NCBI GenBank assembly: GCA_026397235.1
Contig: JAPLVG010000014.1
Span: 1 to 58,076, forward strand
Reading direction: 5' to 3'
Length of the DNA: 58,076 nucleotides
Source of the DNA: Candidatus Berkelbacteria bacterium
GTDB lineage: Bacteria > Patescibacteriota > UBA1384 > XYA2-FULL-43-10 > CAINNR01
Shown here: piece after piece, positions 1-58,076 of the stretch
How the letters are laid out: every line of letters begins with the position of its first letter
Position numbering within the stretch: position 1 is the first letter of the stretch
Notes under the pieces: model-generated
Seen by the model: only the letters and a program-made list of their open reading frames with translations
The model's database searches: none
What the model was told of the DNA's origin: nothing
Made by a program: the position numbers and the translations under genes

Positions 1-506
1 TCTCCACAGGCCCCGATGAGGTCGGCGAGGTCATACCTCGCCCCCAACGCTCCCGCCGACACGAACTCGCCGACCGGGGCCCAGCAACGCGGCCCGGCAA
101 CGGCGACATTGCTGAGCGCCATGAAGCCGGCCGGCACCGGCTGACGCTGCCACGGGTCCTCGTTGGTGTGGAGGCTGTTGATGACCCCGTATTTCTCAGG
201 GTCGCCTCCGTACCACGAACCACTGATGACAACAGGGCCGCTGGGCGTGGCCCAGATTGCGGCCGAATAGTCCTCCTCGACTCTTCGGCACTCGCCGACC
301 CAGCCCGACTCAGTCGCCAGGTACACAGTCCGCCGGTCGGCGCTGATGTAGCGCTTACCGACCGCGACCGGCTCTGGTGACTTCTCATACCACCAGTGGC
401 AAGGTTGCCCCTGATAGTTACAGATGCCGCACAACTGGCACGGCTCTGTATCGACCATTACGACGCCGATCTCCTCCGCCTTTTGCTTCGCTGCTACTGC
501 ATTCAT
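1..506 (-). CDS. hypothetical Cys-rich protein, N-terminal part only (ORF runs off the left edge); G+C-rich ORFan
   Basis: Own minus-strand translation: ATG at 506-504, GGGAGGTG SD at 513-520, and no in-frame stop down to position 3 (168 codons, MNAVAAKQKAEEIGVVMVDTEPCQLCGICNYQGQPCHWW...). It is absent from the ORF track because the window edge truncates it. No family recognised. Confidence 0.55.
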   Translation of the reverse strand, partial: MNAVAAKQKAEEIGVVMVDTEPCQLCGICNYQGQPCHWWYEKSPEPVAVGKRYISADRRTVYLATESGWVGECRRVEEDYSAAIWATPSGPVVISGSWYGGDPEKYGVINSLHTNEDPWQRQPVPAGFMALSNVAVAGPRCWAPVGEFVSAGALGARYDLADLIGACG

Positions 507-719
507 CCTAATCACCTCCCAAGGTGTTCCCCGAAGGGCGCGGTGCTAGGATAGTGCACCGTCTTTTAAGATTCTCCCGCAACGAAGGCGGGGTTGTTTC
601 TCTGTCTTTCGCCTCGAGTTAGACTCAAGACGAAGGAAAAGAAACATTTTTTTGGCATCAAGAAAATAGGCATCGGCAATGCTTTGGTTAATATTTATTT
701 TAAAAAAATCTAAGGTGAT

Positions 720-985
720 TGAGCTCCCGCCAAGGCGGCGGGAGCTCCGGAATGTTGATGTCGCGCGGGGAGTGCAGTTCAGATCGAGCCCATTGGCTCT
801 CACCTGGTCCAACTCCTTCAAAGAAGGGGCTGGACGACAGAGGATTGGAGTCCTCTTACACTCCCCGGCCGGCAAGACGCTGGTGCCGGAACCGTGACTG
901 CGCTGGCGTGCTTACTAGAGTAGCAGGCGATCCTCCAAGATCCCTGAAACCCGGAGTAAGTTCACCACAAGCCAAGCTGAAGTAA
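720..985 (-). ncRNA. candidate structured RNA or long 5' leader (unknown class), G+C-rich and ORF-poor
   Basis: 11-bp perfect hairpin GAGCTCCCGCC/GGCGGGAGCTC (721-747). 8-bp long-range helix 767-774/859-866 encloses nested stems. Track ORFs here look spurious. No RNase P, tmRNA or SRP motif found. Confidence 0.25.
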
Positions 986-1094
986 AATATTTACTGCAAT
1001 TTGGCTCGTAGAACCTTCGCGGTCTTTGCTGCCAACGTGATGAAGCGGAATATCCGCTCCATCTACGCTGACAACTATAAGGTGAATGTCCATC

Positions 1095-1313
1095 TCATGT
1101 CCTGGCGGCAATTATGGCGTTTGCTGATCTTTTACCCACGCACCACAACAAGTTAGGGTGCGGGGCATGACTCAGCAGCCAATAATTGTTTTCCCTCCAA
1201 ATAGGCATTTCAACAGACTTATCTAAATACTCCTGAAACTTGGATAAATCTACATTCTTAACTACACGGATCTGATACACAGATTGACACTGATCAACCC
1301 AGGAAAAAAACAT
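1095..1313 (-). CDS. hypothetical protein (72 aa)
   Basis: ORF track only; no recognisable motif or clear SD. Confidence 0.3.
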   Translation of the reverse strand: MFFSWVDQCQSVYQIRVVKNVDLSKFQEYLDKSVEMPIWRENNYWLLSHAPHPNLLWCVGKRSANAIIAART

Positions 1314-1321
1314 TTGTATGG

Positions 1322-1345
1322 ATTCCGGATCAAGTCCGGAATGAC
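1322..1345. repeat. hairpin-GAC repeat (ATTCCGGA-N5-TCCGGAAT-GAC)
   Basis: Same architecture as the ATTCCCGC-CTTC-GCGGGAAT-GAC copies at 9788-9815, 10530-10557, 26352-26378 and 56122-56148. Confidence 0.6.
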
Positions 1346-1383
1346 AATCGGGTATACGCCAGTTATGGCGTGTATTCTGGCGA

Positions 1384-1410
1384 GATCCTTCGCTAATCGC
1401 TCAGGATGAC
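1384..1410. repeat. degenerate hairpin-GAC repeat
   Basis: ATCC-N15-GGAT followed by GAC; weaker member of the same family. Confidence 0.4.
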
Positions 1411-1748
1411 ATTTGAGTGAGCTCAATGGGTTCATGGTTTTGACTCCTGATCAAAACTCCGGTCTTGCGAGCTCATTCGCGCCAGTTTAACTGCTATTGG
1501 CAGCTAAATGGTATTTATCTATATGTTGTTAAGGTGCGAAGGCGGTTGGCTGATGTCCTGGGTTTCTCTACCGCTCTTCATCGTACACAGGCATTATAGC
1601 ACAGGTCTTTTAAAATGTCAATAGTATAGTGACTAAATTAGCTTATTATATAAAGTTGACAAGTTGCTAATTATTCTTTATATAACGCTCGATGTTTCCA
1701 AAAACTGCATTATCAACTACATTTATTAAACAATGTGTATAAATCTAT

Positions 1749-1777
1749 TTGACAATATACTTAACATATGATAGAAT
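1749..1777 (+). promoter_or_regulatory. sigma70-type promoter with extended -10, predicting a leaderless trmB-like mRNA
   Basis: TTGACA 1749-1754, 17-nt spacer, TG at 1769-1770, TAGAAT 1772-1777. The ATG at 1784 lies 7 nt after the -10 and has no SD. Confidence 0.55.
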
Positions 1778-5291: not shown

Positions 5292-8200
5292 TCAAGAAAT
5301 ATTTTCTTTTCCAACTATCTCTTTTAATTTTCGCTTAACAACCGGGCTTATGTCAATGCGGTTTTTTATTTTGATTTCCTCCCAACCGGAACCATTTTTT
5401 GGTACTTTTATAATTACCGGACTTGTACCAGAGTGAAGCGCAAGTATGGCTTTAATGTCCTTTAAAATTTTTGGTTCTGAACCACGAGGTATGGTGATTT
5501 GCAGTGTCTCTGGTTTGATATCAATTGGGGAAGAAATTGTAGAATTGCTGAATTGTTGAATTGCTGGGTTCGCGTCGCGATTGTTTCCCCAATTATTCAA
5601 TTTTTTCTTGCCGCGTGGGACAAATTCCGGGATTTTATCATCTCCCACAGAGTCACCTGACGGAAGACCAACAGGGAATATCTCTTCAGCTAAAATCTTC
5701 AGTTCGCCATCTTTATTGCTGACATAACCATCAACAACGATAACTTGATCTGGGGTGAATATCGTTGGCGTGGCAGCAAATATCTTCGGAAAAACCAAAA
5801 CCTCAATATTCTTGGTTTGATCCTCGACTTTAATAAACGCCATTTTCTGGCTGTTTTTCTTAGTAATAATTTCCTGAACATTAGCAATAATTCCAGCAAT
5901 GCGGACAAATTGGTTCTCCATTTCGGCTGAAACTTCAATGATTTTTTTCTGCTGATGAGGTTCTATCAACGGCGCAATTTCTGACAGCGGATGTTCGGAA
6001 ACATACATACCCAAAAGCTCTCGCTCCCAAGCCAGGCGCTGTTTTTTGTCTGCCGGTTGGGTGGCTTCAAACTCAATTTTTGCCGTCTCAATAATGTCGG
6101 CGGCGAAAAGCGATGATTGATTCGTATCACGATTTTTTTTGACGCCAGCAGCAAACGCCAACATTCGCTCCATATTAAAAATCAACTCATTACGTTCAGC
6201 TAAATCATCAAGGGCACCGGCCATTGACAGCGCTTCGAGGGATTTTTTATTTATAACTTTCGGTCCCAACCGAGTGAGAAGTTCCGCAATGTCTTTATAT
6301 TTACCATTATTTTTGCGGTCTTCGACAATCTCTTCGGCAACTGCAGCACCGACATGTTTTATTGCCGAAAGACCAAAGCGGACATTGCCGGTTTCTTTAA
6401 CCACGCCAAAATCAACAAAGGATTCATTAACAGATGGTGGCAGAACGGCGATCCCCATCCGTTTGCACTCCTCAATTTCCATTGCCAATTTATCCAAGTC
6501 ATCTTTATTTGATGTCATTAGCGCTGACATATATTCCGGCGGAAAGTTGGATTTCAAATAAGCGGTTTGGTAGGCAACCAAGGCGTAACTAGCGGCGTGA
6601 GCCTTGTTAAAACCGTAACCAGCAAAGGTCTCTATTTGATTCCAAAGTTCGTTAGTTGTTGATTCGCTCATTCCGCGTTCAATAATTTGGCGGAAAAATT
6701 TATCTTTTTGCGCCGCCATTTCTTTGACGATTTTTTTACCAATGGCTTTGCGAAATTTGTCGACTTCTTCCCAGTTGTAGCCGGCAAGTTCAATGGCAAT
6801 CATTAAAACGTCATCTTGATAAACAATCAAGCCGAGCGATTGTTTGAGAACGGCTTCCAGTCTCGGGTCAGCATATTTTATTCGCCCGGGATTATGTTTT
6901 CTGGCCACATATTCGGGAATAAAGGACATTGGTCCGGGGCGGTAAAGTGCGACCATGGCCATGATGTCTAAAATGGTAGTTGGTCGCAACTCTTTGATAT
7001 TTTTCCTCATGCCTTCGGATTCCAGCTGGAAGACACCAATTGTTTCTCCTCGGGATAACATTTCGTAGGTTTTTTTATCGTCAAGCGGAATTTCATCCAA
7101 AATTACTTTAACCTCGCGGGTTTTGGCAACAATTTTAATCACATTTTGAATAATCGAAAGGTTTGCTAAGCCCAAAAAATCCATCTTAATTAAGCCAATC
7201 CCATCCTCTCCAACGGCGTGCATCTCGTATTGGGTAATCAACCGGCCGCCCTTGGCATCCATCATCACCGGCGTGTAGTTAGTAATTTCTTCTGGCGCAA
7301 TTACTACTCCGGCGGCATGAACTGATGCGTGACGAACAACACCCTCCAATTTTCTAGCAATATCGATGCATTGTTTTACCCGCGGATCGGAATCATATAA
7401 ATTCCGCAGTTCGGAAACTTCCTTCAAGGCTTTGTCCAAAGTAGTTTTTAGTGGTGGAATTAATTTAGCGATGATATCAACTTCGGAGTAACTCATACCC
7501 AAAACCCGGCCGACATCGCGAACTGCCATTCTGGCGGCCATGGTTCCAAAAGTGATAATTTGCGCCACGTGATCTTTGCCGTACTTGTTGGAAACATAGC
7601 GAATAATTTCGTCGCGGCCGGCATCAGCAATATCGGCGTCAATATCAGGCGCAGATGGACGATATGGATTTAAAAACCGCTCAAACGGCAAATTATAATC
7701 AAAAGGATTGAGTTGTTTACCAGTAATTCCCAGTGCGTAAGAAATAAAACAGCCGGCAGCCGAGCCCCTGGTGTTAGTTGGGATACCTTGCTGCTTGGCG
7801 AAGTGGAAGAAGTCCTGAACAATCAAAAAATATCCCAAATATCCTTTATCTTTTATAACCTTAAATTCATAATCAATTCTATCTTGTATTTCGGACGTTA
7901 TTTCTGGTACAACGTTTGGTAATCGTTCGTCGATTAGCTTTCGTAGATATGTTTCGTAGGTCTCACCCTCAGGTAATGGAAACTCCGGAAATTGAAATTT
8001 GCCCAGCTCAATTTTGACATCGCACTTTTCCATCACCTCCAGCGTGTTGGTTAAAACCTCCGGATGATCGGGAAAATTTGCTGACATTTGGGCCTGGGTT
8101 AGTAGTGAGTAATCATCACCGGTCATTGTCATACGGTTAGCGTCAGTTACCAATTTTCCGGTTTGCAAGCAAATTAGGGCGTCGTGGGCAATATTGTCAT

Positions 8201-8897: not shown

Positions 8898-10196
8898 ATG
8901 GAAAGTTACTATTTTATTCTTGGTCGGGAAAATAAAATCAGCCAAACAGAACTTCAGTGCGTTTTGGCTAGTTTTGATTTTTATTTCGAAGAAATAACCC
9001 CTCGTAGCTCAAGCGAAGCGAAGAGCGAAGTGGGGTGTAAATCCATCTCTATCTTATCTGATCAAGTTTTAGAGATCAAACTTGTTGCAAGTAGAGATCA
9101 AGTCAAAAATTTAATAGATATCCTTGGCGGCACAGTGAAAATTTATCAGAAAATCGCTTCCAGCAATGAAAAAATTGAATCACTACTGTCCGGCGAAAAC
9201 AAATCATCAAAAATAATTTTTGGTCTTTCAAATTACTCTGGAGCGAAGCTTGATACTTTCAGAATGGCATTATCAGCCAAAAAAGCGGCGAAAAAATCAA
9301 TTCGGATTATCAATGGAAAAGAGGACGACAAACTTTCTAGCGCCCAATCATTTCAATACAAAATGGACATTGATAATGTTGAATATGGTGTATTTGAAAC
9401 TGGAATTGGCAAATTAATCGCAGTGCAAAATATTAACGAGTGGACTCGCCACGATTATGGCAAGCCAAAATCCGACGCTAAATCGGGGATGCTGCCGCCT
9501 AAATTGGCCAGAATGATGGTGAATTTGGCAATCGGGCAAGCCGGAATTAAGAATAATGAATCAGGAATTATGAATGAAAACCATAATTCAGCATTCGGTA
9601 TTCATAATTCATGCCTTGTTGTTGACCCTTTCTGTGGCTCGGGCAATGTCTTGATTGAGGCAATTTCTATCGGTTGTGAAGTTGTTGGTTCTGATTTGTC
9701 AGAAAAGGCAGTATCTGACTCAAAAGCTAATTTGGAATGGTTCCTTGACTGTCATTCCCGACCTGATCGGGAATCCACAAATAGTTTGGTAGATTCCCGC
9801 CTTCGCGGGAATGACATTGTTGTTGCTGATGCCACGAAATTTGATTTTTCCACCATCGACCAGGATTTTGTTATCGCGACGGAGCCGTTTTTGGGTCAAC
9901 CACGAAATTCAAAACTTAGGATTGAAGAGGAGAAAGAGGTTAAAGAAGATACAAAACGATTATATTTGGATTTTTTGAAGAATCTGCAAAGTGCCGGCAG
10001 TAAACTACAAACTATAGCAATAGTTTTTCCGCTCTTCGAACTGGCCAACGGGAAAAAATTGTCAATTTTTGACCATTGTGTTGACTTTATCCGTGATATC
10101 GGCTATACTCTGATATATCCGCCTATGGAATATGGGCGTGAATATCAGATCGTAAAGCGACAAATCGTTATATTAAAGCTATCAGCTGACAGCTAA
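8898..10196 (+). CDS. Trm11/UPF0020-like RNA (guanine-N2?) methyltransferase carrying an in-frame repeat insertion
   Basis: N-terminus YYFILGRENKISQTELQCVL resembles Trm11/THUMP-type MTases. Motif I is VVDPFCGSGNVLIEA and the motif IV-like segment is IATEPFLGQP. The 65-nt repeat at 9751-9815 lies between them and is read through (CHSRPDRESTNSLVDSRLRGND). Confidence 0.55.
   Translation: MESYYFILGRENKISQTELQCVLASFDFYFEEITPRSSSEAKSEVGCKSISILSDQVLEIKLVASRDQVKNLIDILGGTVKIYQKIASSNEKIESLLSGENKSSKIIFGLSNYSGAKLDTFRMALSAKKAAKKSIRIINGKEDDKLSSAQSFQYKMDIDNVEYGVFETGIGKLIAVQNINEWTRHDYGKPKSDAKSGMLPPKLARMMVNLAIGQAGIKNNESGIMNENHNSAFGIHNSCLVVDPFCGSGNVLIEAISIGCEVVGSDLSEKAVSDSKANLEWFLDCHSRPDRESTNSLVDSRLRGNDIVVADATKFDFSTIDQDFVIATEPFLGQPRNSKLRIEEEKEVKEDTKRLYLDFLKNLQSAGSKLQTIAIVFPLFELANGKKLSIFDHCVDFIRDIGYTLIYPPMEYGREYQIVKRQIVILKLSADS
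9751..9815 (+). repeat. 65-nt twin-hairpin element, intragenic copy
   Basis: 62/65 identical to 10493-10557. Hairpin 1 is ATTCCCGA-N5-TCGGGAAT; hairpin 2 is ATTCCCGC-CTTC-GCGGGAAT followed by GAC. Confidence 0.9.
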
Positions 10197-10490: not shown

Positions 10491-10492
10491 TT

Positions 10493-10557
10493 GTCATTCC
10501 CGACTTGATCGGGAATCCGCAAATAGTTTAGTAGATTCCCGCCTTCGCGGGAATGAC
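10493..10557 (+). repeat. 65-nt twin-hairpin element, intergenic copy
   Basis: Starts 3 nt after the rpmA stop; 62/65 identical to 9751-9815. Confidence 0.9.
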
Positions 10558-10893
10558 GTGCCAGGTTTCTGACAAAAGGCATCCATTGCCTGTTTTTTGT
10601 CAGCAACCTATTTGGTTGGAAATCCTCCGAGGTTTTAGGAGGTAAAAATGATGAAGGAGGTTGTGTAAGAAAAAGTGGCATGCGTGTGCCACTTGCGGTG
10701 AGCGTTTTCAGTCGAGCGAAACTTCGCCGCAATGTCCAAAATGTCAGAGCCCGACAGCTTCGGAGGCGTAAGCCCTTGAACCGCGCGTTGGCGCGGTCAC
10801 TTTCCGGAAGGGCCAAATCCCATGATACAGGTAGATCACATCGCAGCACTTCCTAGTTCATGGGTAGGGGGCCCAAACTAGGAGACGTTTCAG

Positions 10894-11058
10894 ATGACGT
10901 ACGACGAAGTTCAAAAACTTCCACAGCCAGCCCCGGGTTTCAGGGAGCTGAACGGCAAGGCCGTTAGGGAGTCAATGCTGATTAGCACCGTTGCTGCCGA
11001 TGTTTCGGCGTTTTCGGCTGCAACCCGCGGCGGAGGCATCGAAGACGGACGCAGCTAG
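10894..11058 (+). CDS. possible small G+C-rich ORF (54 aa)
   Basis: Own translation MTYDEVQKLPQPAPGFRELNGKAVRESMLISTVAADVSAFSAATRGGGIEDGRS*, with AGGAGA 7 nt upstream. Below the track size cutoff. Confidence 0.25.
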   Translation: MTYDEVQKLPQPAPGFRELNGKAVRESMLISTVAADVSAFSAATRGGGIEDGRS

Positions 11059-11282
11059 CATTCTATGACAACTGCAGAGTTATCGACTGTGACAAAAGCC
11101 AGGCTGGTTTTTACCGGTCTGGATCGCCGTGAAAAACGGCACGAAGCAACTGGCAGAGTCGCGAGAGCCACTCTGCCACGTACTGATTATCGAAAAATAC
11201 CCGGTCGATGCATGCAGTTTGTGCATCGACCCGTTCCCTCTGGATTCAAATTATTAAATACAGAGAAAACGGAATTAATTAG

Positions 11283-11316
11283 ATTGCCGCGTCGCTCAGC
11301 CGCTCCTCGCAATGAC
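11283..11316. repeat. hairpin-GAC repeat variant (ATTGC...GCAAT-GAC)
   Basis: ATTGCCGCGTCGCTCAGCCGCTCCTCGCAATGAC; a similar unit lies at ~5250-5288. Confidence 0.4.
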
Positions 11317-11327
11317 AAAAGAACATT

Positions 11328-12000: not shown

Positions 12001-12231
12001 ATGTTTAGTGAAACAAATCCTAACAGTGAATCAGAAATCGGAGAATCTCCAGAGGAGATGAAAAAAAGAAGACTCGCAGAGTTGCGCGAAGAAGGTCAAA
12101 ATGGTGGCACTGTTGATCATGACGCTGATCGACAGGTCAGACTTGTTGAGCATAATAAAGAAGTCCAAACTGAATTTCTGAACAATCATCCAGAACTTAT
12201 TAGAAAGCAAAAGCCAACTTCAGAAGAATAA
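12001..12231 (+). CDS. hypothetical acidic protein (76 aa)
   Basis: AAGGAGA SD 5-6 nt upstream of the ATG; no family recognised. Confidence 0.45.
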   Translation: MFSETNPNSESEIGESPEEMKKRRLAELREEGQNGGTVDHDADRQVRLVEHNKEVQTEFLNNHPELIRKQKPTSEE

Positions 12232-12262
12232 AAAACCGACCTGCATGGTGCGAGGCCGGATG

Positions 12263-12847: not shown

Positions 12848-12908
12848 ATTGCCACCTCCTAGGGGTGGATATTTTGTCCTGTGGTGATTATAGCATTATA
12901 ATAGGTTT

Positions 12909-40495: not shown

Positions 40496-40507
40496 TGATG
40501 TTTTTAT

Positions 40508-40932: not shown

Positions 40933-40961
40933 ATATTAGCACATCTGATATAATATGTCAA
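40933..40961 (-). promoter_or_regulatory. extended -10 promoter of 40508..40894
   Basis: Minus strand: TTGACA, 17-nt spacer, TGC-TAATAT. Confidence 0.5.
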
Positions 40962-45115: not shown

Positions 45116-45133
45116 GTATACCAGACTTATAAT

Positions 45134-47569: not shown

Positions 47570-47758
47570 GATTAAGTGGCTATTTTTTAGCTTGTCCCGC
47601 ACCAGAACAAGTTCGATGCGGGACTGCGCTCGCCTGCGGCTTCGCTTGACTTTTTGAGCTCAGTTTAGTAAGTTAGATATGGCGGCACGGTTCCCCCTTC
47701 CGAGCCGCCAACTTTTCCGCCAGCTTGCACTGAACAAAGTGAAGTGGCGGTTTTTTGA

Positions 47759-47787
47759 TTGACAAAAATTGGTTTTGCTGATATTTT
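47759..47787 (+). promoter_or_regulatory. extended -10 promoter of 47819..48478
   Basis: TTGACA 47759-47764, 17-nt spacer, TG-A-TATTTT 47779-47787. Confidence 0.45.
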
Positions 47788-47818
47788 TGCAGAAGCTAGA
47801 AAAAGGGAAGTGATTACA

Positions 47819-48478
47819 ATGCCGGAGTGTCGAGTCGCTTTGCTGATCGGTGACATCTACGAAGTAAACCTGCCGGAACCGTTCACGCGGATGGCTGATG
47901 TTTTTCAGTACAAGGAGTGTAGCGATGTTGAGGAAGAGGTCTTGGTTTCAGCTGATGACAGTCTGGTGCTGAAAATCAAGGCGTTTTCTTTCAGTCAAGC
48001 TGGCGAGATTGTTCAGAAGTACATGAGCGATAACACCGACTCCTTCGTCCTCGCTAATGCGGAAAGTACGGAACAGCAGTATTCGCGAGTGGTCCGCCGG
48101 CTTGTTCGTGAAAAGCGTGGGTTGATCGTTGACCCGATCATCAACTTTAAACCGCATATCCTGGTCGCCGGCCAAACGGTGTTCTTCGAGGAACTGGTTG
48201 TGGCTGTAGCCAATGGGTCCAGTTGCGGTGCTCCCCAAGTGATTCGTTTTTCCAGCTTTTATGGTGAGTCGAAAGGATACACCAACAGAACTGCATCGGA
48301 CGTCGGATACGGTTTCGACATGATCAAAGATCTGGATATGCTGGCGGAGTTGGTTCTCGATGCTGAGGTTCTCCGATCAGCAATTTCTGGATACGAGACT
48401 TTTGCCGATGCGATTGATCGATTCAACCAAGACTTGATTGGGTCCGGTAGCAAACCGATAACCACAGTCGTACCATAA
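47819..48478 (+). CDS. hypothetical protein, G+C-rich ORFan (219 aa)
   Basis: AAGGGAAG SD before the ATG at 47819; the track TTG start at 47759 coincides with the -35 box. No family recognised. Confidence 0.5.
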   Translation: MPECRVALLIGDIYEVNLPEPFTRMADVFQYKECSDVEEEVLVSADDSLVLKIKAFSFSQAGEIVQKYMSDNTDSFVLANAESTEQQYSRVVRRLVREKRGLIVDPIINFKPHILVAGQTVFFEELVVAVANGSSCGAPQVIRFSSFYGESKGYTNRTASDVGYGFDMIKDLDMLAELVLDAEVLRSAISGYETFADAIDRFNQDLIGSGSKPITTVVP

Positions 48479-48494
48479 GTGCCCGCTAGGCTGA

Positions 48495-48526
48495 AAGGTG
48501 ATCAACTTGATCACCTTGTTTTTTTT
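48495..48526 (+). terminator. rho-independent terminator
   Basis: AAGGTGATC-AACTT-GATCACCTT followed by T8. Confidence 0.7.
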
Positions 48527-48580
48527 GGGAAGTTGCGATACAATCAAATTAGAAATGAGGAGGAAACTCCTTTTTTTGTC

Positions 48581-48629
48581 CAAGAATGGATGACGAATAT
48601 CCTAATGACTAATAACGAATAGACCAATC
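48581..48629 (+). repeat. ~47-nt repeat D, copy 1
   Basis: CAAGAATGGATGACGAATATCCTAATGACTAATAACGAATAGACCAAT; about 90% identical to 54794-54841. Confidence 0.7.
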
Positions 48630-48700: not shown

Positions 48701-48976
48701 ATGTTGAAGCCACTTGGGAACAAAGTTCTGATTGAACCGTTGGAAGCGGAGGAAGTTACAAAATCAGGCATCATTTTACCTGACAGCGCCAAAGAAGAAC
48801 GAAGCGAAGGCAAAGTTATCGCCATTGGATCGGGTTTGGTTGAAGGCAAGGAGTATAAATTTTCAGTTAAAGTTGGCGACAAAGTTTTATATGGAAAATA
48901 TTCCGGTGAGGAAGTGAAAATCGACAAAAAAGATTACAAGGTTGTTAAAGAAGATGAAATTTTAGGGGTTTTATAA
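48701..48976 (+). CDS. groES: co-chaperonin GroES
   Basis: MLKPLGNKVLIEPLEAEEVTKSGIILPDSAKE...GKVIAIG. Confidence 0.95.
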   Translation: MLKPLGNKVLIEPLEAEEVTKSGIILPDSAKEERSEGKVIAIGSGLVEGKEYKFSVKVGDKVLYGKYSGEEVKIDKKDYKVVKEDEILGVL

Positions 48977-50720
<1,744 letters not shown>

Positions 50721-50756
50721 GTCCACAGATCTTTGACACAGATTGGGCACAGATAA
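50721..50756. repeat. half triple-word element (CACAGAT x3)
   Basis: GTCCACAGATCTTTGACACAGATTGGGCACAGAT; a left arm only, directly after the groEL stop. Confidence 0.5.
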
Positions 50757-50792
50757 AAAAAATCCCTTTGGAGAAATCTGAGGGGATTTTTT
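50755..50792. terminator. bidirectional terminator-like repeat F, copy 1
   Basis: A8-TCCCTTTGGAGAAATCTGAGGGGA-T6; about 85% identical, including the loop, to 51744-51780. Confidence 0.65.
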
Positions 50793-50797
50793 GTGAT

Positions 50798-50827
50798 AAA
50801 AATGACCCGAAGTTTCACCTTCGGGTC
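50798..50827 (-). terminator. rho-independent terminator of 50836..51648
   Basis: GACCCGAAG-N6-CTTCGGGTC with an A5 run on the plus strand. Confidence 0.65.
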
Positions 50828-50835
50828 ACGGACAT

Positions 50836-51648
50836 CTATTTGCAGTATGGGCAGGTTACATCGTTGTAAATTCTGGCGCAGTGGTCGCAGAGTTTTTCGT
50901 TTGGTTTCATCCAAGCCAGAACCCAGAGTTTGCCATTAGGCATCCGTTTTATCACGCCAACCCGGCGGTCAGGGGCAAACCGACCAGCGGAAATCTGGTG
51001 TTGTGATTCAGCACCATTAACACCTTCCATCCGTCGATGGAAAATGGTGGTGTCAGCAATAAAACCTTGCCGAATATTCTCCATCTCAACCAGATACTGC
51101 TGGCGTTCTTCGACCAGGTTTCCCATCCGGGCGATGAAATCACTTGCTAGTGCCGAACTGTCCTCGTAGTTTTGAACAAAATCTTGGACTTCGACATCAT
51201 CAATCCGGATTTCTTTCGGTAACTGGATTCCGCCGCAATTTAGGCTTTTTATTTCGATCTTAATCCATTTTTTCTTGGATGTCAGACCAATCATCAGCCG
51301 ATTATCAGGCGGATTACCTTCTTGAAACCAACCAAATTCTGGTTGGAAAATGCCGAAAAATTGGAACTCTTTCGGGTTCGGCATCTCGTTTCCGTTGACG
51401 AAAAGTGAAAATTCCCATTGCGGGTCAAACTCCATTGCCTCGGCGATTGAAATCCCAAACCATCTATTTGGGTGGTTGTATTTGAACTTCTTGCAGGAGC
51501 CAAGACATTCAACGTCAAACAGCTGGTCTAGTTTGATCTTGTCAAAGAGATGTCGTATTCTTTGCGGCCACTCTTCGAACCACCCAATCATCTCTGCACG
51601 CGACACTGGCTGATACGTCGTAGCATTTGGCGAGGGCATTCCCTCCAC
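50836..51648 (-). CDS. hypothetical protein with C-terminal zinc ribbon, G+C-rich ORFan (270 aa)
   Basis: TTTAGGAGGTGGAGGG SD; C-terminus CDHCARIYNDVTCPYCK. No family recognised. Confidence 0.55.
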   Translation of the reverse strand: MEGMPSPNATTYQPVSRAEMIGWFEEWPQRIRHLFDKIKLDQLFDVECLGSCKKFKYNHPNRWFGISIAEAMEFDPQWEFSLFVNGNEMPNPKEFQFFGIFQPEFGWFQEGNPPDNRLMIGLTSKKKWIKIEIKSLNCGGIQLPKEIRIDDVEVQDFVQNYEDSSALASDFIARMGNLVEERQQYLVEMENIRQGFIADTTIFHRRMEGVNGAESQHQISAGRFAPDRRVGVIKRMPNGKLWVLAWMKPNEKLCDHCARIYNDVTCPYCK

Positions 51649-51688
51649 CTCCTAAAGATTTCCTCGGGGCATTCCCCTTGGTGGCAAA

Positions 51689-51717
51689 ACCATAGCAGAA
51701 ATTTTCAGCTGATTCAA
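51689..51717 (-). promoter_or_regulatory. extended -10 promoter of 50836..51648
   Basis: Minus strand: TTGAAT, 17-nt spacer, TGC-TATGGT. Confidence 0.5.
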
Positions 51718-51743
51718 GCATTTTTTGCTTTGATGAAGAAATT

Positions 51744-51780
51744 AAAAAATCTCCAAAGAGAAATCTGCGGGGATTTTTTT
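51744..51780. terminator. bidirectional terminator-like repeat F, copy 2
   Basis: A6-TCTCCAAAGAGAAATCTGCGGGGA-T7; lies downstream of the efp/PRC-barrel operon. Confidence 0.65.
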
Positions 51781-51818
51781 GTTAGCAATAGAACAATTTA
51801 ACAATAAAGCAATGTTTT

Positions 51819-52337
51819 TTATGCCAATTCGGCGTGAGCACCAGTTGGAATCGGTTCCGGTTTAACCATTTCAAAATTGTCTTTGACGATTATTTTATGC
51901 TGTTCGATTTTAACGATTGCCGATGAGTGGATGATTCGCTGGTCGAAAAGTTTTTTCAGATAGATTCGTGTGATAGAAAGCGAGGAATTTTCAATCACAT
52001 AGTCAAAAACCGTACCTAAAAATTCACCTTTTTTAGTGTAAACTTTTTCGCCAACAATTTTTGCTCGTTTTTTAGATTTTTTGTGCAGCCTTATCATTTC
52101 TTTTGGTTCAACCAAACTTTCCACGTCTTGAATTATGAGTGCAGCCTTGGAAATATCAATAACCTCTTTGGCTGAAATATATTTTTGATGATGGATTAGA
52201 CCGTCAGTTTTGGCAATCACAGCTTCGACTTTGGTCTCATCGTCATCAATAAAAAAGTCCACAAGTTCGGCAACCCGCAACTGATTTTCTAGCTCAAAAA
52301 TTGGTAATCCAACTAGATTGGATTTTTCAATTAACAT
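51819..52337 (-). CDS. PRC-barrel domain protein (two repeats)
   Basis: LVGLPIFELENQLRVAELVDFFID and IVGEKVYTKKGEFLGTVFDYVIE resemble YlmC/YmxH-type PRC barrels. Confidence 0.45.
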   Translation of the reverse strand: MLIEKSNLVGLPIFELENQLRVAELVDFFIDDDETKVEAVIAKTDGLIHHQKYISAKEVIDISKAALIIQDVESLVEPKEMIRLHKKSKKRAKIVGEKVYTKKGEFLGTVFDYVIENSSLSITRIYLKKLFDQRIIHSSAIVKIEQHKIIVKDNFEMVKPEPIPTGAHAELA

Positions 52338-52361
52338 GGCTAAATTATACCATTTATAAAA

Positions 52362-52450
52362 GGAAGAAACTACACAGAAAGTTACACAGAAGAAACACAG
52401 AATTGTATTTTCTGTGCCATGTCTGTGTTGAGGTCTGGGTGGTTTCTACA
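52362..52450. repeat. triple-word palindromic element (CACAGA/TCTGTG)
   Basis: Located between efp and the PRC-barrel gene; termini GGAAGAAACTACACAGA ... GGTCTGGGTGGTTTCTAC. Confidence 0.75.
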
Positions 52451-52452
52451 AT

Positions 52453-53037
52453 TTAATTTGCCCGTTCAATATATGAGTTCGTTCTGGTATCAATAACAAT
52501 TTTGTCGCCGGCTTTAATGAAAAGGGGAACAGCAACTTGGCCGCCAGTCGAGATTGTTGCCATTTTTGTTACGGTTCCGGCGCTGTTTCCTTTTATCCCC
52601 GGAGGCGCATCGGTGACTTCGAAGGTCATTTTGATTGGCAGTTCAAGGCTGATTGGTTTACCTGCCCCGAGCGGAGTCGAGGGGTCCTGAAAATAAAGAA
52701 TTTCTATTGCCGAGTTTTCGGCCAAATATCCAATTTGATCGGCCAGTTGTGCTACCGGCAATTCAAATTGCTCGAAGTTTGTATTATCCATAAAAAAAGC
52801 ATTTTCATCGTCAGAGTACAAAAATTGGGCTGATTTATGCGACAGTTCAGCCGGCTCGATTTTGTCAGAACCCTGGAAGGTTTTATCGATTGTGCCAGCA
52901 GTGATTAAATTCTTCAGTTTTGTTCGCATCACGGCGCCGGAGCGACCCTGTTTTGAGTGCTGAGAAAAAGTCACGACGTACGGGTCGCCTTCAATAATAA
53001 CCTTAGTGCCAACTTTTAGGTCGGTGATTGAATACAT
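52453..53037 (-). CDS. efp: elongation factor P
   Basis: MYSITDLKVGTKVIIEGDPYVVTFSQHSKQGRSGAVMRTKLKNL; three-domain length. The tip of the modification loop is Arg (KQGRSGA). Confidence 0.93.
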   Translation of the reverse strand: MYSITDLKVGTKVIIEGDPYVVTFSQHSKQGRSGAVMRTKLKNLITAGTIDKTFQGSDKIEPAELSHKSAQFLYSDDENAFFMDNTNFEQFELPVAQLADQIGYLAENSAIEILYFQDPSTPLGAGKPISLELPIKMTFEVTDAPPGIKGNSAGTVTKMATISTGGQVAVPLFIKAGDKIVIDTRTNSYIERAN

Positions 53038-53042
53038 AATAA

Positions 53043-53132
53043 TGTAGAAACTACACAGATATTAACACAGACGAAACTCAGAAAAATCAATTCCGTGTCC
53101 AATTCTGTGTAACTATCTGTGTGGTTTCTTCA
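53043..53132. repeat. triple-word palindromic element (CACAGA/TCTGTG)
   Basis: Located between rpsR and efp; TGTAGAAACTACACAGAT ... ATCTGTGTGGTTTCTTCA. Confidence 0.75.
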
Positions 53133-53134
53133 AT

Positions 53135-53356
53135 TTATCTGCTGACGTATGGTAGTAACGCAATTTGTCTTGCTCGTTTGATCGCAGATCCAAGCTGTCG
53201 TTGATGTTTGGCGCAAACGCCGGTGCGGGAAGCCGGATCGATTTTTGACCAACGATTAATATAACGCGACAAGGTCGAGACATCTTTGTAGTCAATTTCA
53301 GCAATTTTAGTTTTGCAGAAATAGCATTTTTTCTTGTTGTGGAATCCTTCGTTCAT
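53135..53356 (-). CDS. rpsR: 30S ribosomal protein S18
   Basis: [63 protein letters not shown]. Start moved to the ATG at 53356; the track start lies in the upstream repeat. Confidence 0.9.
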
Positions 53357-53377: not shown

Positions 53378-53465
53378 GTGTATAGCCACAAATCTATACC
53401 ACAGATCAACACCAATGGATTCAATTTGTGAAAATTTGTGATAAAAATCTGTGGCTAGACACTAC
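53378..53465. mobile_element. ORF-less miniature (MITE-like) relative of the 38429-38872 cassette
   Basis: Termini GTGTATAGCCACAAATCTATACCACAGAT ... ATCTGTGGCTAGACACTAC match the cassette inverted repeats (GGCTAGACACTAC identical). No coding capacity. Confidence 0.55.
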
Positions 53466-53474
53466 ATTTATTTG

Positions 53475-54664: not shown

Positions 54665-54793
54665 TTTCTCCTTATGGTACTGGTTTAATTGCCCAATTAG
54701 ATCGAGCGCCAGCCCCGCAAGCGCGGGAAGTAATAATTAAATTGTGTTTTGATAATATCAAAGTCATTTACAAAAGTCAAGCGCATTCGCTCC

Positions 54794-54841
54794 ATGAATG
54801 GATGACTAATAACCAAATGACTAATAACGAATAAAACCAAT
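54794..54841 (+). repeat. ~47-nt repeat D, copy 2
   Basis: ATGAATGGATGACTAATAACCAAATGACTAATAACGAATAAAACCAAT. Confidence 0.7.
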
Positions 54842-54847: not shown

Positions 54848-54876
54848 TTGAAATTTTAATCCATTTCTGCTATATT
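54848..54876 (+). promoter_or_regulatory. extended -10 promoter of 54886..55362
   Basis: TTGAAA 54848-54853, 17-nt spacer, TGC-TATATT 54868-54876. Confidence 0.55.
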
Positions 54877-54885
54877 CTTGGCGAG

Positions 54886-55362
54886 GTGATGGAAATGAAG
54901 CCGAAAATCAAACCACGGCGATCAAATACGCCGCGCAAGACGAAGAAGCATGAGAGTTTCCAGATGTCGCCCTGGGTTCCCGAAAAGGGCAAGTACGAAA
55001 CGAATATTGGTACCTATCCGGTTGGCGACGACGAGCATTATGTCTACCCGATTTATGTCTGCGGACAATACAAACCGGAGCGGACGGGATTTTTTCTCCG
55101 AATCAGTCCGAGTCTGAGGGTTTTCTTTCACCACCAGTTCGGCTCAGTGGAGCTAAAGAAGCTGCCGCTGAATTTGGCTGACACTGTAGAGTTCTTGGTT
55201 GATGGCGTCGCCAGGGCATCGACAACCTTGCTTGGCAAGTTGACGCTGATGACGACCAACCGCGACGACAACATTGTATACATTGTCGCGGAAAAAATCC
55301 CAGTGCCGCCGGTAATGACCGGTTTGAAGCCAGCTAGCCAGCTGACATTATTGCCGGCCTAA
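54886..55362 (+). CDS. hypothetical basic-N-terminus protein, G+C-rich ORFan (about 155 aa)
   Basis: GAGGTG SD. Possible starts GTG 54886, ATG 54889 or ATG 54895. No family recognised. Confidence 0.5.
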   Translation: MMEMKPKIKPRRSNTPRKTKKHESFQMSPWVPEKGKYETNIGTYPVGDDEHYVYPIYVCGQYKPERTGFFLRISPSLRVFFHHQFGSVELKKLPLNLADTVEFLVDGVARASTTLLGKLTLMTTNRDDNIVYIVAEKIPVPPVMTGLKPASQLTLLPA

Positions 55363-55375
55363 ATGAAATCCTCTC

Positions 55376-55402
55376 GCGCCCAGTAGTTTGGGCGCTTTTT
55401 TT
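55376..55402 (+). terminator. rho-independent terminator
   Basis: GCGCCCA-N6-TGGGCGC followed by T7. Confidence 0.7.
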
Positions 55403-55410
55403 ATGGCGAA

Positions 55411-55483
55411 CAAACTTTAGTTTGCGAAAAAACACGCTGAAGCGTGGTCTCCAGAAGTTTTTAGATAACAGACTTTAGTTTGC
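55411..55483 (+). repeat. ~72-nt direct repeat E, copy 1
   Basis: CAAACTTTAGTTTGCGAAAAAACACGCTGAAGCGTGGTCTCCAGAA...GACTTTAGTTTGC, i.e. three small hairpins. About 90% identical to 56196-56265 over the first 45 nt. Confidence 0.75.
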
Positions 55484-55558
55484 TGAATTATTGACTTTAA
55501 AAATATTTTTGCTAAGCTGGCAGTATCGCAAAGATCAAACGAAACAGGTGAAGTTTTG

Positions 55559-56122
55559 ATGAAAAATGATATTTGTCGTCAGGGGCGTTGTGAAATCAAT
55601 CTCGAAGAAGCACTGGCGATTTGCCGATTGATGGATGTGTGTAGAAAGCCACTGGAACACGTCCTTACCCAAAAGGGAATTCAAGAAGTTGGGTCAATCA
55701 GCCATGTTTTTGTGGACATCTCAATGGAACCACTTTCCCCGGTTGGCACTTTTTGCCAGAGTCAGTATTATCCGGATTTGATCCGGGCGGTCAAACAGCC
55801 ACCAACGGTTTGGACATGTACCAAGTTGCCGAACATGAAGATGCTGTCGGAACTGATCGAGGCGATGGAGTCTGGACTAAAATGTACCATCGAGACAACT
55901 GATTTGGGCGTTACTATCTCAATGAATGTTGACGGTGGTCGTGGGCGCTTGGTTTTGGAGGGTGTTGGTTCCATTGGTTGGAGCGAACAACTTCAATTAA
56001 GGTCAAGATTTTTTTCAGAAACCACCGCTGCTTTAACAATGTATCTGACCGACGTCGTGGTGCGTCTCAACCGTTTCCTGCCTTGGCTGATCAAGTTGGC
56101 TGGCGGGAAAGTCACAATTTAG
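55559..56122 (+). CDS. hypothetical Cys-rich protein, G+C-rich ORFan (187 aa)
   Basis: AGGTGA SD 7 nt before the ATG at 55559. TTGACT/16/TGC-TAAGCT promoter at 55491-55518. No family recognised. Confidence 0.5.
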   Translation: MKNDICRQGRCEINLEEALAICRLMDVCRKPLEHVLTQKGIQEVGSISHVFVDISMEPLSPVGTFCQSQYYPDLIRAVKQPPTVWTCTKLPNMKMLSELIEAMESGLKCTIETTDLGVTISMNVDGGRGRLVLEGVGSIGWSEQLQLRSRFFSETTAALTMYLTDVVVRLNRFLPWLIKLAGGKVTI

Positions 56123-56148
56123 TAGATTCCCGCCTCCGCGGGAATGAC
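56122..56148 (+). repeat. half copy (second hairpin) of the twin-hairpin element
   Basis: GTAGATTCCCGCCTCCGCGGGAATGAC; begins at the last base of the stop codon of 55559..56122. Confidence 0.7.
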
Positions 56149-56158
56149 AAACAACTTC

Positions 56159-56187
56159 GCGTCCCGAAACTTCGGGACGCTTTTTTT
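56159..56187 (+). terminator. rho-independent terminator
   Basis: GCGTCCCGAA-AC-TTCGGGACGC followed by T7. Same layout as 55376-55402 but a different stem sequence. Confidence 0.65.
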
Positions 56188-56195
56188 ATTGAGTT

Positions 56196-56265
56196 CAAAC
56201 TTTAGTTTGCGAAAAAACACGCTGAAGCGTGATCTCCAGAAAACGGAGTACAAACTTTAGTTTGC
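56196..56265 (+). repeat. ~72-nt direct repeat E, copy 2
   Basis: CAAACTTTAGTTTGCGAAAAAACACGCTGAAGCGTGATCTCCAGAA...CAAACTTTAGTTTGC. Confidence 0.75.
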
Positions 56266-56300
56266 TATTAACATGATAAATCATGGTCTCCAAAAATCGG

Positions 56301-57377
56301 CTATACATTAAATCGAAACAGTGTGACGTCACCGTCTTTAAAAATATAATTTTTACCTTCGGTTCGGACCATACCGTGAGAACGGGCACCGGTCCAACCA
56401 CCTTGGGCGTAGAGATCCTGCCAAGCAACAACTTCGGCGGCAATAAATCCACGTTCGAAATCAGTATGAATCACACTGGCTGCCTCGGGTGCCTTGGCAC
56501 CATTGCGAACGGTCCAAGCTCTGGTTTCCGGTTCACCGGAAGTAAAATATGTTATTAAATTTAGTGCTTTGTAGGCTTCTTTTATCAAGCGGTTGATGCC
56601 AGTATCGGCAATGCCAAGAGCTTCGAGGTATTCCTTTTTTTCCGCATCATTTAAATCATTTAGCTCTGACTCTATCTTTGCTGATATTGGAATTAAACTA
56701 ATTACTTCATTGTTCAACTGTTCAATTGTTCCATTGTTAATTAATTGATCCTCTGAACAGTTGGCAACGTACAAAACTGGTTTCATTGTCATTAACGCCA
56801 TTGATTTAATTAGCCGTATTTCATCCTCTGATAAGTCCGCTTCGCGGGCGTTTTTCCCATCGCAAAGTTTTTTGATAATTTTATCTAGCGCTTCTTTTTC
56901 TAGTTTAGCGTCCTTTGATCCACTTTTTATATCGCGGTCTAAATTGTATTGGCGTTTTTCGACTGTCGCAATGTCGGCAAGTTGTAGTTCGGTTTCAATT
57001 GTTTCAATGTCATCTTTTGGGTTAATTTTCCCCGCAACGTGAGTAACATTGTCGTCTTGAAAAAAGCGAACAACCATGGCTATGGCATCACATTCTCGAA
57101 TATGGGAAAGAAATTGGTTACCAAGCCCTTCGCCCTTTGACGCGCCACGAACTAAGCCGGCAATATCAACGAACTCAACGACAGTCGGAACAATTTTTTT
57201 AGATTTGGAAACTTTCGCCAAAGGTGCCAGTCTTTCGTCCGGAACTTCAACAATTCCAACATTGGGTTCAATGGTACAGAATGGGTAATTTGCCGCTTCT
57301 GCCTTTGAGCCCTTTACCAAGGCGTTGAAAAGAGTCGACTTTCCGACGTTGGGAAGACCAACAATAGCAATTTTCAT
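56301..57377 (-). CDS. ychF: ribosome-binding ATPase YchF
   Basis: MKIAIVGLPNVGKSTLFNAL, DIAGLV, and the TGS-like C-terminus (RAWTVRNGAKAPEAASVIHTDFERGFI). Confidence 0.95.
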   Translation of the reverse strand: MKIAIVGLPNVGKSTLFNALVKGSKAEAANYPFCTIEPNVGIVEVPDERLAPLAKVSKSKKIVPTVVEFVDIAGLVRGASKGEGLGNQFLSHIRECDAIAMVVRFFQDDNVTHVAGKINPKDDIETIETELQLADIATVEKRQYNLDRDIKSGSKDAKLEKEALDKIIKKLCDGKNAREADLSEDEIRLIKSMALMTMKPVLYVANCSEDQLINNGTIEQLNNEVISLIPISAKIESELNDLNDAEKKEYLEALGIADTGINRLIKEAYKALNLITYFTSGEPETRAWTVRNGAKAPEAASVIHTDFERGFIAAEVVAWQDLYAQGGWTGARSHGMVRTEGKNYIFKDGDVTLFRFNV

Positions 57378-57388
57378 AAAATCTCCTA

Positions 57389-57857
57389 CAAGAATGGACA
57401 GCGAACTAAAACTAATGGCGAAAAGCGAATGAAATCAATACAGATTAGGGATTCTTTTTGTCCTTACTCCAGTTTTTGTAAACCGATATATCATTCCTAA
57501 TTTTTTCTCACTGGTTTTTAAATAACGAAAAATTTGCGAACAAACCTGCTTGTAATTAGCGTCGTTAGCTTTCAGTTCAACGATAACTTTATTTTCGATC
57601 AGGAAATCGAAGAAATACTTCTTGACAACTTTTTCCTCCACTTTTATCGGAAAATATAATTCTCGCGAAAAATCAATATTTTCTTTCTCTAGCAAAATCG
57701 CAAAAGCATCAGCATAAACTTTTTCATTTTGACCATGACCGACTAAATCGTTAACTTTATAAGCGATGCCGGTGAGTTTATATGATAGATCTTTGAAAAT
57801 CAAGTCTGTCATTTTGTTGGTTGTTCGTTGTTAGTTTTAGTTCGCTGTCCATTCTTG
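57389..57857 (-). mobile_element. inverted-repeat-bounded GxxExxY gene cassette (second type)
   Basis: Perfect 27-bp inverted repeats CAAGAATGGACAGCGAACTAAAACTAA at 57389-57415 and 57831-57857 enclose the gene. The repeat sequence is unrelated to that of cassette 1. Confidence 0.6.
57435..57812 (-). CDS. GxxExxY-family protein (PD-(D/E)XK-like)
   Basis: GHGQNEKVYADAFAILL (GxxExxY), DFLIENKVIVELKA (D...E.K), 125 aa. Confidence 0.8.
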   Translation of the reverse strand: MTDLIFKDLSYKLTGIAYKVNDLVGHGQNEKVYADAFAILLEKENIDFSRELYFPIKVEEKVVKKYFFDFLIENKVIVELKANDANYKQVCSQIFRYLKTSEKKLGMIYRFTKTGVRTKRIPNLY

Positions 57858-57928
57858 ATATTATCCCAGATATGGCTGGAAGTAAAGAAAAAATTCTGAT
57901 ATTATTTTTGACAAAGAGGTGATAGCTG

Positions 57929-58076
57929 ATGGCCAAGGCCCAACTTTGGACGAAAACTAGAGAGGAGTTTCTTTCCCCACACGAAGAACCACACGAGTTG
58001 GGTCAACTGCCAAATCCGTCATCGGAAAATCGCCGAATCCGCGACAAACTGGGACGGTTTGTTCGTGGTACAAAAC
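57929..58076 (+). CDS. hypothetical protein, N-terminal part only (runs off the right edge), G+C-rich
   Basis: Own translation MAKAQLWTKTREEFLSPHEEPHELGQLPNPSSENRRIRDKLGRFVRGTK..., with AGAGGTGA SD 6 nt upstream. Open to the window end. Confidence 0.4.
   Translation, partial: MAKAQLWTKTREEFLSPHEEPHELGQLPNPSSENRRIRDKLGRFVRGTK

Follow-up and report, generated by a model that had tools for sequence, protein, structure and literature searches.

Contig JAPLVG010000014.1 of a Candidatus Berkelbacteria bacterium (assembly GCA_026397235.1) is 58,076 nucleotides (nt) long, and the whole of this stretch is called the window below. Between AT-richer core genes it carries short G+C-rich units, which appear to be separately transcribed, consist of one gene or sometimes two genes, and encode small proteins for which no homologues outside Berkelbacteria were found. 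We think that these units are probably moron-like, fast-evolving accessory genes, which occupy fixed slots between operons, are turned over by loss and replacement, and have their G+C content kept high by a gene-specific force. Slot means here the gap between conserved housekeeping operons, and cassette means the unit of promoter, open reading frame (ORF) and terminator in such a slot (Table 1). The core genes of the window are bacterial by Pfam (DnaE, DnaX, DnaB, GltX, L27, L19, S6, S18, SSB, EF-P, GroES/EL, PyrG, YchF and a glycan operon). Loci of relatives bear labels such as L001 and L004; 80 loci came from a scan based on GroEL, and the closest public relatives were metagenome-assembled genomes labelled Candidatus Berkelbacteria or Patescibacteria.

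Discrete G+C-rich segments among AT-richer core genes had been listed by eye in a preliminary description of the window, and the computed composition bears them out. The 15 listed segments have a pooled G+C content of 50.9%, against 40.1% in the remainder and 41.8% in the whole window. Single segments span 46-60%; the lowest are 12240-12900 (46.7%), 50795-51745 (46.0%) and 55490-56190 (46.1%), and some unlisted core-gene stretches, such as Big_7 (24406-25012) and the GroEL 3' end, also reach about 49-50%. At the level of genes, the 11 ORFs without a recognisable family (ORFans) have a G+C fraction (GC) of 0.46-0.64 (mean 0.525), while the 45 other genes have 0.32-0.47 (mean 0.402; Mann-Whitney p=4e-7), and the two ranges scarcely overlap. 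The step is confirmed at third codon positions (GC3, 0.60 in ORFans versus 0.37 in other genes), and the first (GC1, 0.56 versus 0.49) and second positions (GC2, 0.41 versus 0.34) are raised too. Amino-acid use differs between ORFans and other genes in Arg/(Arg+Lys) (0.53 versus 0.34), Cys (2.1% versus 0.6%) and Trp (1.9% versus 0.8%). The dinucleotide relative-abundance distance (delta*) from ORFans to core is 117, when equal-sized random core sets give 36 +/- 10 and 0 of 300 such sets reach 117.

The ORFans had been described as lacking any recognisable family, and indeed no match at accepted thresholds was found for the 11 ORFs in Pfam, PHROGs or PADLOC, with only weak sub-cut-off matches to DUF2284 and DUF7129. 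Comparison of the ORFans all against all showed no paralogy among them. Zinc ribbons and/or transmembrane (TM) helices, also noticed before, are present in five places (3-506, 40508-40894, 50836-51639, 23388-23606 and 31861-32245).

Relatives show that the units are accessory insertions in a conserved gene order and vary between related genomes, as the preliminary description had supposed. The order NTase-groES-groEL-PRC-efp-rpsR-ssb-rpsF-ychF is kept across the loci of the GroEL scan. In L007, L010, L012, L018, L035 and L037 the gaps NTase/groES, groEL/PRC and rpsF/ychF are 130-290 nt long and hold little beyond a bidirectional terminator hairpin, whereas the same three gaps are 0.6-2.7 kb long in the window and its nearest relatives, L001, L003, L004, L005, L006 and L009, with variable cargo that often has 51-57% G+C. 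L001 shares 95% GroEL identity with the window, yet its slot content differs. The place of cassette D is only 27 nt long in L087 and L088, the dnaB/GT2 gap that houses cassette E holds a different GC-rich cargo of 346 amino acids (aa) in L088, and the rpmA/rplS gap has 72 nt in L013 versus the 760-nt segment K in the window. Across 26 loci, GC3 exceeded the local core median by more than 0.12 in 29% of locus-unique genes and in 0% of widely conserved genes, which means that the phenomenon belongs to the clade and not to this genome alone.

Some GC-rich slot genes of relatives belong to known families: two for lipid synthesis, PlsX and a PlsY/Shikimate_DH-like fusion (both at GC 0.55-0.57, with a GpsA neighbour of 0.38), and a pilin with N_methyl motif and DUF1559 domain. 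Therefore the GC-rich compartment is not confined to ORFans.

Cassettes G, H, I and J have divergent homologues in the same slots of relatives. The homologue of H in the groEL/PRC slot of L004 is 64% identical, and two further ones (P0004 of L167 and P0005 of L168), which adjoin PRC and in L168 lie between PRC and groEL, are 30-34% identical. These two have GC 0.52-0.53 and GC3 0.58-0.63 beside neighbours with GC3 0.32-0.44, in loci whose GroEL is 70% identical. A homologue of G with 59% identity lies directly after the NTase gene of L170 (GC3 0.68 versus 0.45 in NTase); those of I in L004 (46%) and of J in L001 (27-31%) occupy the same slot as in the window. For all pairs of the four families the synonymous divergence (dS) was at least 2 or incalculable, with a ratio of non-synonymous to synonymous divergence (dN/dS) of about 0.1-0.35; by these rates, G, H, I and J encode real proteins under purifying selection. 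The GC3 of the four families is 0.51-0.68, versus 0.32-0.45 in their neighbours. Because they have divergent same-slot homologues with saturated dS and are still GC-rich, at least these four cassettes are not recent. H diverges in the same order as the species, with the window and L004 nearest to each other and L168 outermost; as a weak test, this agrees with descent and loss. Every homology found among slot ORFs across genomes was within one slot, and none joined two slots. A pairing of the cassette F protein with an L003 ORF of similar architecture in the same gap was rejected, the match being not significant (E 0.1).

The preliminary description had also claimed a uniform set of expression signals for these ORFs, with a TGn-extended promoter, a strong Shine-Dalgarno sequence (SD) and an own terminator, and this is largely real. 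By consensus matches, a TGn -10 box precedes D, F, G, H, I and J; the promoter is complete with its -35 box in the first five and is a variant with 16-nt spacing in J, while A is preceded by TGCTATAAT. The extended -10 TGCTATATT lies at 26171-79 (minus strand) and 54868-76 (plus strand) as described, while 51689-97, where it had been placed too, reads TGCTATGGT. SDs of the AGGAGGTG type are found at 12851-60 and about 26115-26123, and the one put at 51652-65 is slightly displaced, being at about 51645-51655. The mean SD match to the 16S 3' end is 6.1 nt for ORFans versus 4.1 nt for other genes, and a strong hairpin with T-run terminator follows 82% of ORFans (9/11) versus 18% of other genes. 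It is thus correct that core genes mostly lack such signals, but this is expected, since core genes lie inside operons, and the contrast with the ORFans tells little. With their own promoter, leader, SD and terminator, the units are likely expressed independently of their neighbours, which has a basis in RNA for cassette H.

Cassette H is transcribed. In three lake-water metatranscriptomes searched over the whole window, all full-length exact RNA contigs of at least 150 nt fell inside H (50976-51158, 51046-51254 and 51496-51664, with 0-1 mismatch each), and the remaining RNA matches were repeat matches of about 30 nt and one partial match of 73 nt in rplS. DNA carry-over would not hit one and the same 0.8 kb in all three metatranscriptomes, and H shows no excess of DNA depth. 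Transcription of H is probably stronger than that of the nearby groEL or ribosomal protein genes.

Promoter, 5' leader hairpin, SD and first codons (MPSP) of H are near-invariant across four loci, while the protein is only 30-64% identical. The leader hairpin has the form CCAAGGGG-AAUN-CCCC..., followed by the SD AGGAGGTGGAGGGA. As read from the sequence, the 5' CCACC of the leader could pair with GGTGG of the SD, and such pairing would make control of translation possible. The protein alignment has conserved motifs, including a C-terminal CxxC...CPxC ribbon. A confident AlphaFold2 model (predicted local distance difference test score, pLDDT, 83; predicted template modelling score, pTM, 0.73) consists of an alpha+beta domain, a helical hairpin and the C-terminal ribbon. 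Comparison of this model with PDB and BFVD gave no significant match, the best being a weak NTF2/cystatin-like one (E about 0.05).

From these results we propose the following course. A unit that has a sigma-70-type promoter (often with TGn-extended -10), a short hairpin leader with a long SD, and a strong intrinsic terminator would insert at or beside an inter-operon terminator by illegitimate insertion. Later it would disappear or give way to another unit, probably when the conserved flanks recombine. Insertion at inter-operon terminators would explain the duplicated terminator hairpins round H and J. A gene-specific force is suggested because old residents keep their high GC3 beside AT-richer neighbours; the G+C excess is also mainly in the ORFs (non-coding DNA of slots 0.387 versus 0.324 in other spacers), which points in the same direction. 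The zinc ribbons, TM helices, signal peptide, fast evolution and strong expression weakly suggest roles of the cassettes in the envelope, in host interaction or in phage interaction.

Several points weigh against this account of the units as long-resident accessory genes held GC-rich. No homologue was found for D, A, B, C and ORFan_3 (of these five, the protein-cluster search covered D and ORFan_3), and a recent foreign origin of these five is possible. The exhaustive HMMER search was made for H only, and word-indexed search may miss relatives at about 30% identity. The distinct dinucleotide signature of the ORFans is also expected of foreign DNA. On the GroEL tree the presence of H requires at least three gains or losses, which makes transfer between Berkelbacteria as possible as repeated loss. 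The excess in the non-coding DNA of slots is only slight, and the GC3 of core-gene ends facing slots is only a little raised (+0.05, p=0.025, uncorrected); the latter would fit biased conversion linked with recombination. The force could be selection that acts on mRNA or protein, biased gene conversion via frequent recombination or repeated re-seeding from an unsampled GC-rich pool, and none of these candidates is singled out. The RNA evidence consists of assembled contigs and not read counts, for one cassette, and the whole analysis is based on the 58-kb window and the fetched loci of relatives.

It may also be, although we would not go so far as to call it probable, that Berkelbacteria and perhaps other candidate phyla radiation (CPR) bacteria have a separate compositional compartment, in which small, slot-bound, fast-evolving accessory genes with strong and autonomous expression are held by a gene-specific force at about 50-57% G+C and GC3 0.5-0.7 in genomes of about 40%. 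The candidate forces for such a compartment would be mRNA selection (for stability, or to evade AU-directed cleavage) and, at recombination hotspots, GC-biased gene conversion. If it is true, atypical composition is here no sign of recent foreign DNA, contrary to the standard rule.

The ORF-poor segments need a separate consideration. Three of them had been proposed as decayed cassettes without ORFs. The one at 10560-11320 holds two small ORFs, a CxxC...CxxC zinc-ribbon ORF of 36 codons (10661-10771) and a 54-aa ORF with SD (10894-11058), and the GC peak at 13290-13400 is essentially one terminator hairpin of 13 bp, so only 44777-45115 remained as described, with no ORF found. RNA folding gave z-scores of -7 to -9 for 10560-11325, -6.5 and -5.9 for 530-1000 and -3.65 for 44780-45133, versus +1.1 to -3.1 in eight core-gene control segments. 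The ORFan coding sequences average about -2.4, just slightly more structured than core coding regions. It is rather unlikely, but consistent with these scores, that structured non-coding RNAs or long structured leaders, and not decayed protein cassettes, make up 10560-11320, 530-1000 and perhaps 44777-45115. The z-scores of 10560-11325 and 530-1000 are the same on both strands, plausible SD-bearing small ORFs lie within 10560-11320, no RNA contig of the three metatranscriptomes fell in these segments, and Rfam, at gathering and at permissive thresholds over the whole window, gave two tRNAs only and no family for the ORF-poor segments, all of which argue against RNA. Overall, 10560-11320 and 530-1000 resemble small-ORF units or structured RNA more than decayed cassettes; 530-1000 could be a long leader or RNA, and the ORF-poor segments as a group are candidates for small-ORF units, structured leaders or RNAs. 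The broader idea that all GC-rich segments are RNAs was rejected, as G+C and structure had r = -0.16 in a window-wide folding scan.

An element of about 70 nt at 47645-47714, directly after the NTase gene, is 78-97% conserved in L001, L003, L004, L005, L007 and L009 and recognisable in L170. It is kept irrespective of how the gap on the groES side is filled, and has a weak sub-threshold Rfam match to CcsR1. It may be a small RNA, a regulatory element or a terminator element.

Recent and repeated acquisition of single genes from a higher-G+C donor, for an episymbiont perhaps its host, was the first explanation offered in the preliminary description, and we consider it unlikely. Of that proposal the accessory, variable and atypical character of the units stood, and genes not yet ameliorated would agree with the atypical composition at three codon positions, the distinct amino-acid use and dinucleotide signature, the absence of cassettes from the nearest relatives and the GC3 of ORFan_3 (0.78). 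PlsX, the PlsY fusion and the DUF1559-type pilin in slots of relatives are also families that CPR bacteria could acquire. However, no donor or host lineage was found in the protein-cluster searches, which covered D, ORFan_3, G and H. Among 5.8e9 protein clusters D and ORFan_3 matched only themselves and G had one relative, while the exhaustive HMMER search of H against 1.84e9 representatives gave four relatives; the only homologues in these searches were other Berkelbacteria. IMG/VR scans with H (profile), D, G, A and ORFan_3 gave no relatives. The same-slot homologues of G, H, I and J are saturated in dS and GC-rich all the same, which a recent arrival does not account for. Within the clade, moreover, H has kept its promoter and leader.

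An unrecognised process of cassette capture had been the other suggestion, and it found no support; a mobile system for the insertion of promoter-ORF-terminator units, whether integron-like or targeted to hairpins, is very unlikely. It would be favoured by the position of H between two copies of a 36-nt hairpin (50756-50792 and 51744-51780) and of J between two direct repeats, each about 115 nt long (55374-55490 and 56157-56270, including the terminator of I), and by GGGAATGAC hairpin repeats that adjoin K, D, J and the first segment. In run X5, moreover, a minor contig joins 55373 to 56157 exactly at the repeat boundaries, omitting J and one copy of the ~115-nt repeat (depth 3.6 versus about 11-13; anchor 25 nt), which may be weak evidence for a J-less variant in the population. 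But the hairpin round H is the native groEL/PRC bidirectional terminator, and the same arrangement occurs in L004. In a search at 13 units, flanking direct or inverted repeats were above chance only at H and J, with ten other units at chance level, and a general insertion signature was therefore rejected. The cassette ends have no common motif or repeat family, no attC-like site was found in the window, and no integron integrase was found among the larger ORFs by Pfam; without a shared end motif and an integrase, a dedicated capture system is unlikely. The sole recombinase, a large serine recombinase (21663-23240), belongs to an unrelated element whose G+C is ordinary, no two slots share a family, and the known selfish cassettes of the window (PDDEXK_3) are AT-rich (GC 0.32).

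A double-hairpin repeat, GTCATTCCCG...CGGGAATGAC, adjoins several GC-rich units and gives weak, spurious Rfam FtrB matches. At the repeat copy 56108-56174 the summed metagenome-contig depth is 141-2913 versus about 6-24 in the flanks, so this element is common to many genomes in these communities.

The assembly is sound. The region 50600-51900 is present in eight DNA runs from two studies and complete in 7/8; a 3.2-kb contig covers groEL-H-PRC at a depth of 13.3, when its neighbour contig has 12.9; cassettes I and J have the depth of their flanks in four further runs, and Logan contigs of at least 14 samples have an identical D/Big_7 junction. Since the junctions recur at even depth in metagenome assemblies made independently and relatives carry like units in the same gaps, a chimeric assembly or contamination from another organism, which the sharp composition steps and the position of the most GC-rich piece (1-515) at the contig end might suggest, can practically be dismissed, and for D, G, H, I and J it is effectively refuted.

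Core-gene-flanked hotspots of accessory-gene turnover in bacterial chromosomes have reportedly been described by Oliveira et al. in 2017 (Nat Commun). Like these, the slots are a few core-flanked intervals that gather gain, loss and replacement, with lineage-specific cargo. Unlike them, each slot holds one or two small genes without integrase or mobile-element genes, the cargo is GC-richer than the core, and families keep to one slot across deep divergence. As a rule, transferred genes exceed the core in A+T.

Integron gene cassettes are similar in being single-ORF units of unassigned function gathered at defined sites, but the units here have no attC, IntI or common promoter Pc, carry their own promoter and terminator, and are dispersed and not arrayed.

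Phage morons carry a promoter and a terminator of their own, a deviant G+C content, and are extra DNA relative to relatives (PMC3594210; HK97/HK022 type). The units resemble them as single genes between conserved genes, absent at the same position in relatives, by a G+C unlike that of adjoining genes, and by their own promoter (D, F, G, H, I and J) and terminator (9/11 ORFans), for which the basis is consensus matches and, for H, transcription. They differ in lying in a cellular chromosome, flanked by rpmA/rplS, dnaB, groEL, efp, rpsF and ychF with no prophage, and in having no PHROG match, no phage genes and no IMG/VR relatives. Several of them are also old, slot-conserved and persistently GC-rich, while morons are evident recent additions.

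Orphan genes are generally at or below the genome G+C, and phage-like ones lower (PMC11293555). In the amelioration model, as represented by the passages of that paper which cite Lawrence & Ochman 1997, atypical ORFans are read as recent transfers. The ORFans of the window share with those the atypical composition, restricted distribution, short length and fast evolution; they differ in a G+C content 12 points and a GC3 22 points above the genome, and in showing no amelioration despite saturated synonymous divergence.

In the literature searched we found no description of persistently GC-rich, slot-bound accessory genes. New relative to morons and turnover hotspots is the compositional persistence of the slot genes. 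Compositional atypicality is routinely taken as recent transfer, and orphan genes normally equal or exceed their genome in A+T; the reverse pattern here outlasts saturated synonymous divergence, and it means that a process other than mutation-driven amelioration shapes the cassette genes. Being small, lineage-specific and rapidly evolving, these genes are good candidates for the biology of CPR episymbionts. Although groEL and ribosomal protein genes lie in the same 58 kb, at least one cassette seems to give the most abundant transcript there, and the fixed slots with conserved promoter and leader modules offer a handle for comparative and experimental work.

Table 1. Units, signals and repeats of the window, with corresponding positions in loci of relatives
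Feature	Position	Strand	Description
ORFan_3	3-506	-	Cys/Trp-rich ORF truncated at contig end; most GC-rich unit of the window; GC 0.64, GC3 0.78; SD GGAGGTGAT
GC-rich stretch	530-1000	.	upstream of ORFan_3; without convincing ORF; strongly structured on either strand
Segment K	10560-11320	+	between rpmA and rplS; small ORFs 10661-10771 and 10894-11058; very structured
Cassette A	12230-12895	-	-10 TGCTATAAT at 12887-12895; SD AGGAGGTG; ORF 12263-12847, 194 aa, N-terminus resembling a signal peptide; terminator 12230-12257
Terminator hairpin	13371-13402	+	13 bp, GC-rich, 3' of yraN
Cassette B	18605-19069	-	ORF 18656-19069, 137 aa, GC 0.56, GC3 0.72; terminator 18605-18630; between two paralogous genes inside the integrated element at 17.7-23.3 kb
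Cassette C	23388-23641	+	72-aa ORF, single TM, Pro/Gln-rich; terminator 23617-23641; called as gene in independent assemblies too
Cassette D	25224-26199	-	promoter 26171-26199 (TTGCCG-N-TGCTATATT); hairpin leader; SD AGGAGGTG; ORF 25251-26111, 286 aa, GC3 0.66; terminator 25224-25246
Cassette E	31817-32245	-	between dnaB and GT2 gene; overlapping ORFs 32069-32245 (58 aa) and 31861-32076 (71 aa), both predicted small membrane proteins; terminator 31817-31833
Cassette F	40108-40961	-	promoter 40933-40961; ORF 40508-40894, 128 aa, GC3 0.67, three TM helices and zinc ribbon; terminator 40462-40495
Cassette F, second ORF	40166-40396	-	76 aa; terminator 40108-40125
ORF-free GC-rich stretch	44777-45115	-	3' of pyrG; terminator 44785-44805 at end; moderately structured
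Cassette G	47759-48517	+	promoter 47759-47787 (TTGACA-N-TGATATTTT); ORF 47819-48478, 219 aa; terminator 48495-48517
Cassette H	50756-51780	-	promoter 51689-51717; ORF 50836-51639, 267 aa, C-terminal zinc ribbon; terminator 50802-50829
H leader module	51640-51720		L004 7858-7945; L167 about 5940-6000; L168 about 2730-2790
Cassette I	54848-55395	+	promoter 54848-54876 (TGCTATATT); ORF 54886-55362, 158 aa, GC3 0.65; terminator 55376-55395
Cassette J	55487-56180	+	promoter TTGACT...TGCTAAGCT; ORF 55556-56122, 188 aa; terminator 56159-56180
GC-rich slot genes with families in relatives	L001 8502-10226; L004 12132-13199, 3313-4089; L167 1-679
Double-hairpin repeat copies	1320-1348, 9750-9815, 10492-10557, 26281-26393, 56083-56148		GTCATTCCCG...CGGGAATGAC
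PDDEXK_3 genes and repeat copies	38428-38873, 57389-57857, 53378-53473, 48579-48621, 54791-54833
CACAGA-type palindromic arrays	28520-28628, 48957-49077, 52342-52462, 53034-53137

The integrated element of about 5.6 kb (17700-23300), located between tRNA-Gln and tRNA-Glu, has ordinary G+C except for the embedded cassette B. Besides the large serine recombinase, it encodes a Replic_Relax protein (20221-21003), and it has paralogous genes that follow (ACT)n-spacer promoters. At its place just 1.6 kb is present in L087 and L088.

Two AT-rich nuclease genes of the PDDEXK_3 (GxxExxY) type lie inside inverted repeats, and gene-less or solo copies of the repeat adjoin slots G and I. Heptamers of the CACAGA type form palindromic arrays at the core-gene junctions HU/dnaX, groES/groEL, PRC/efp and efp/rpsR.

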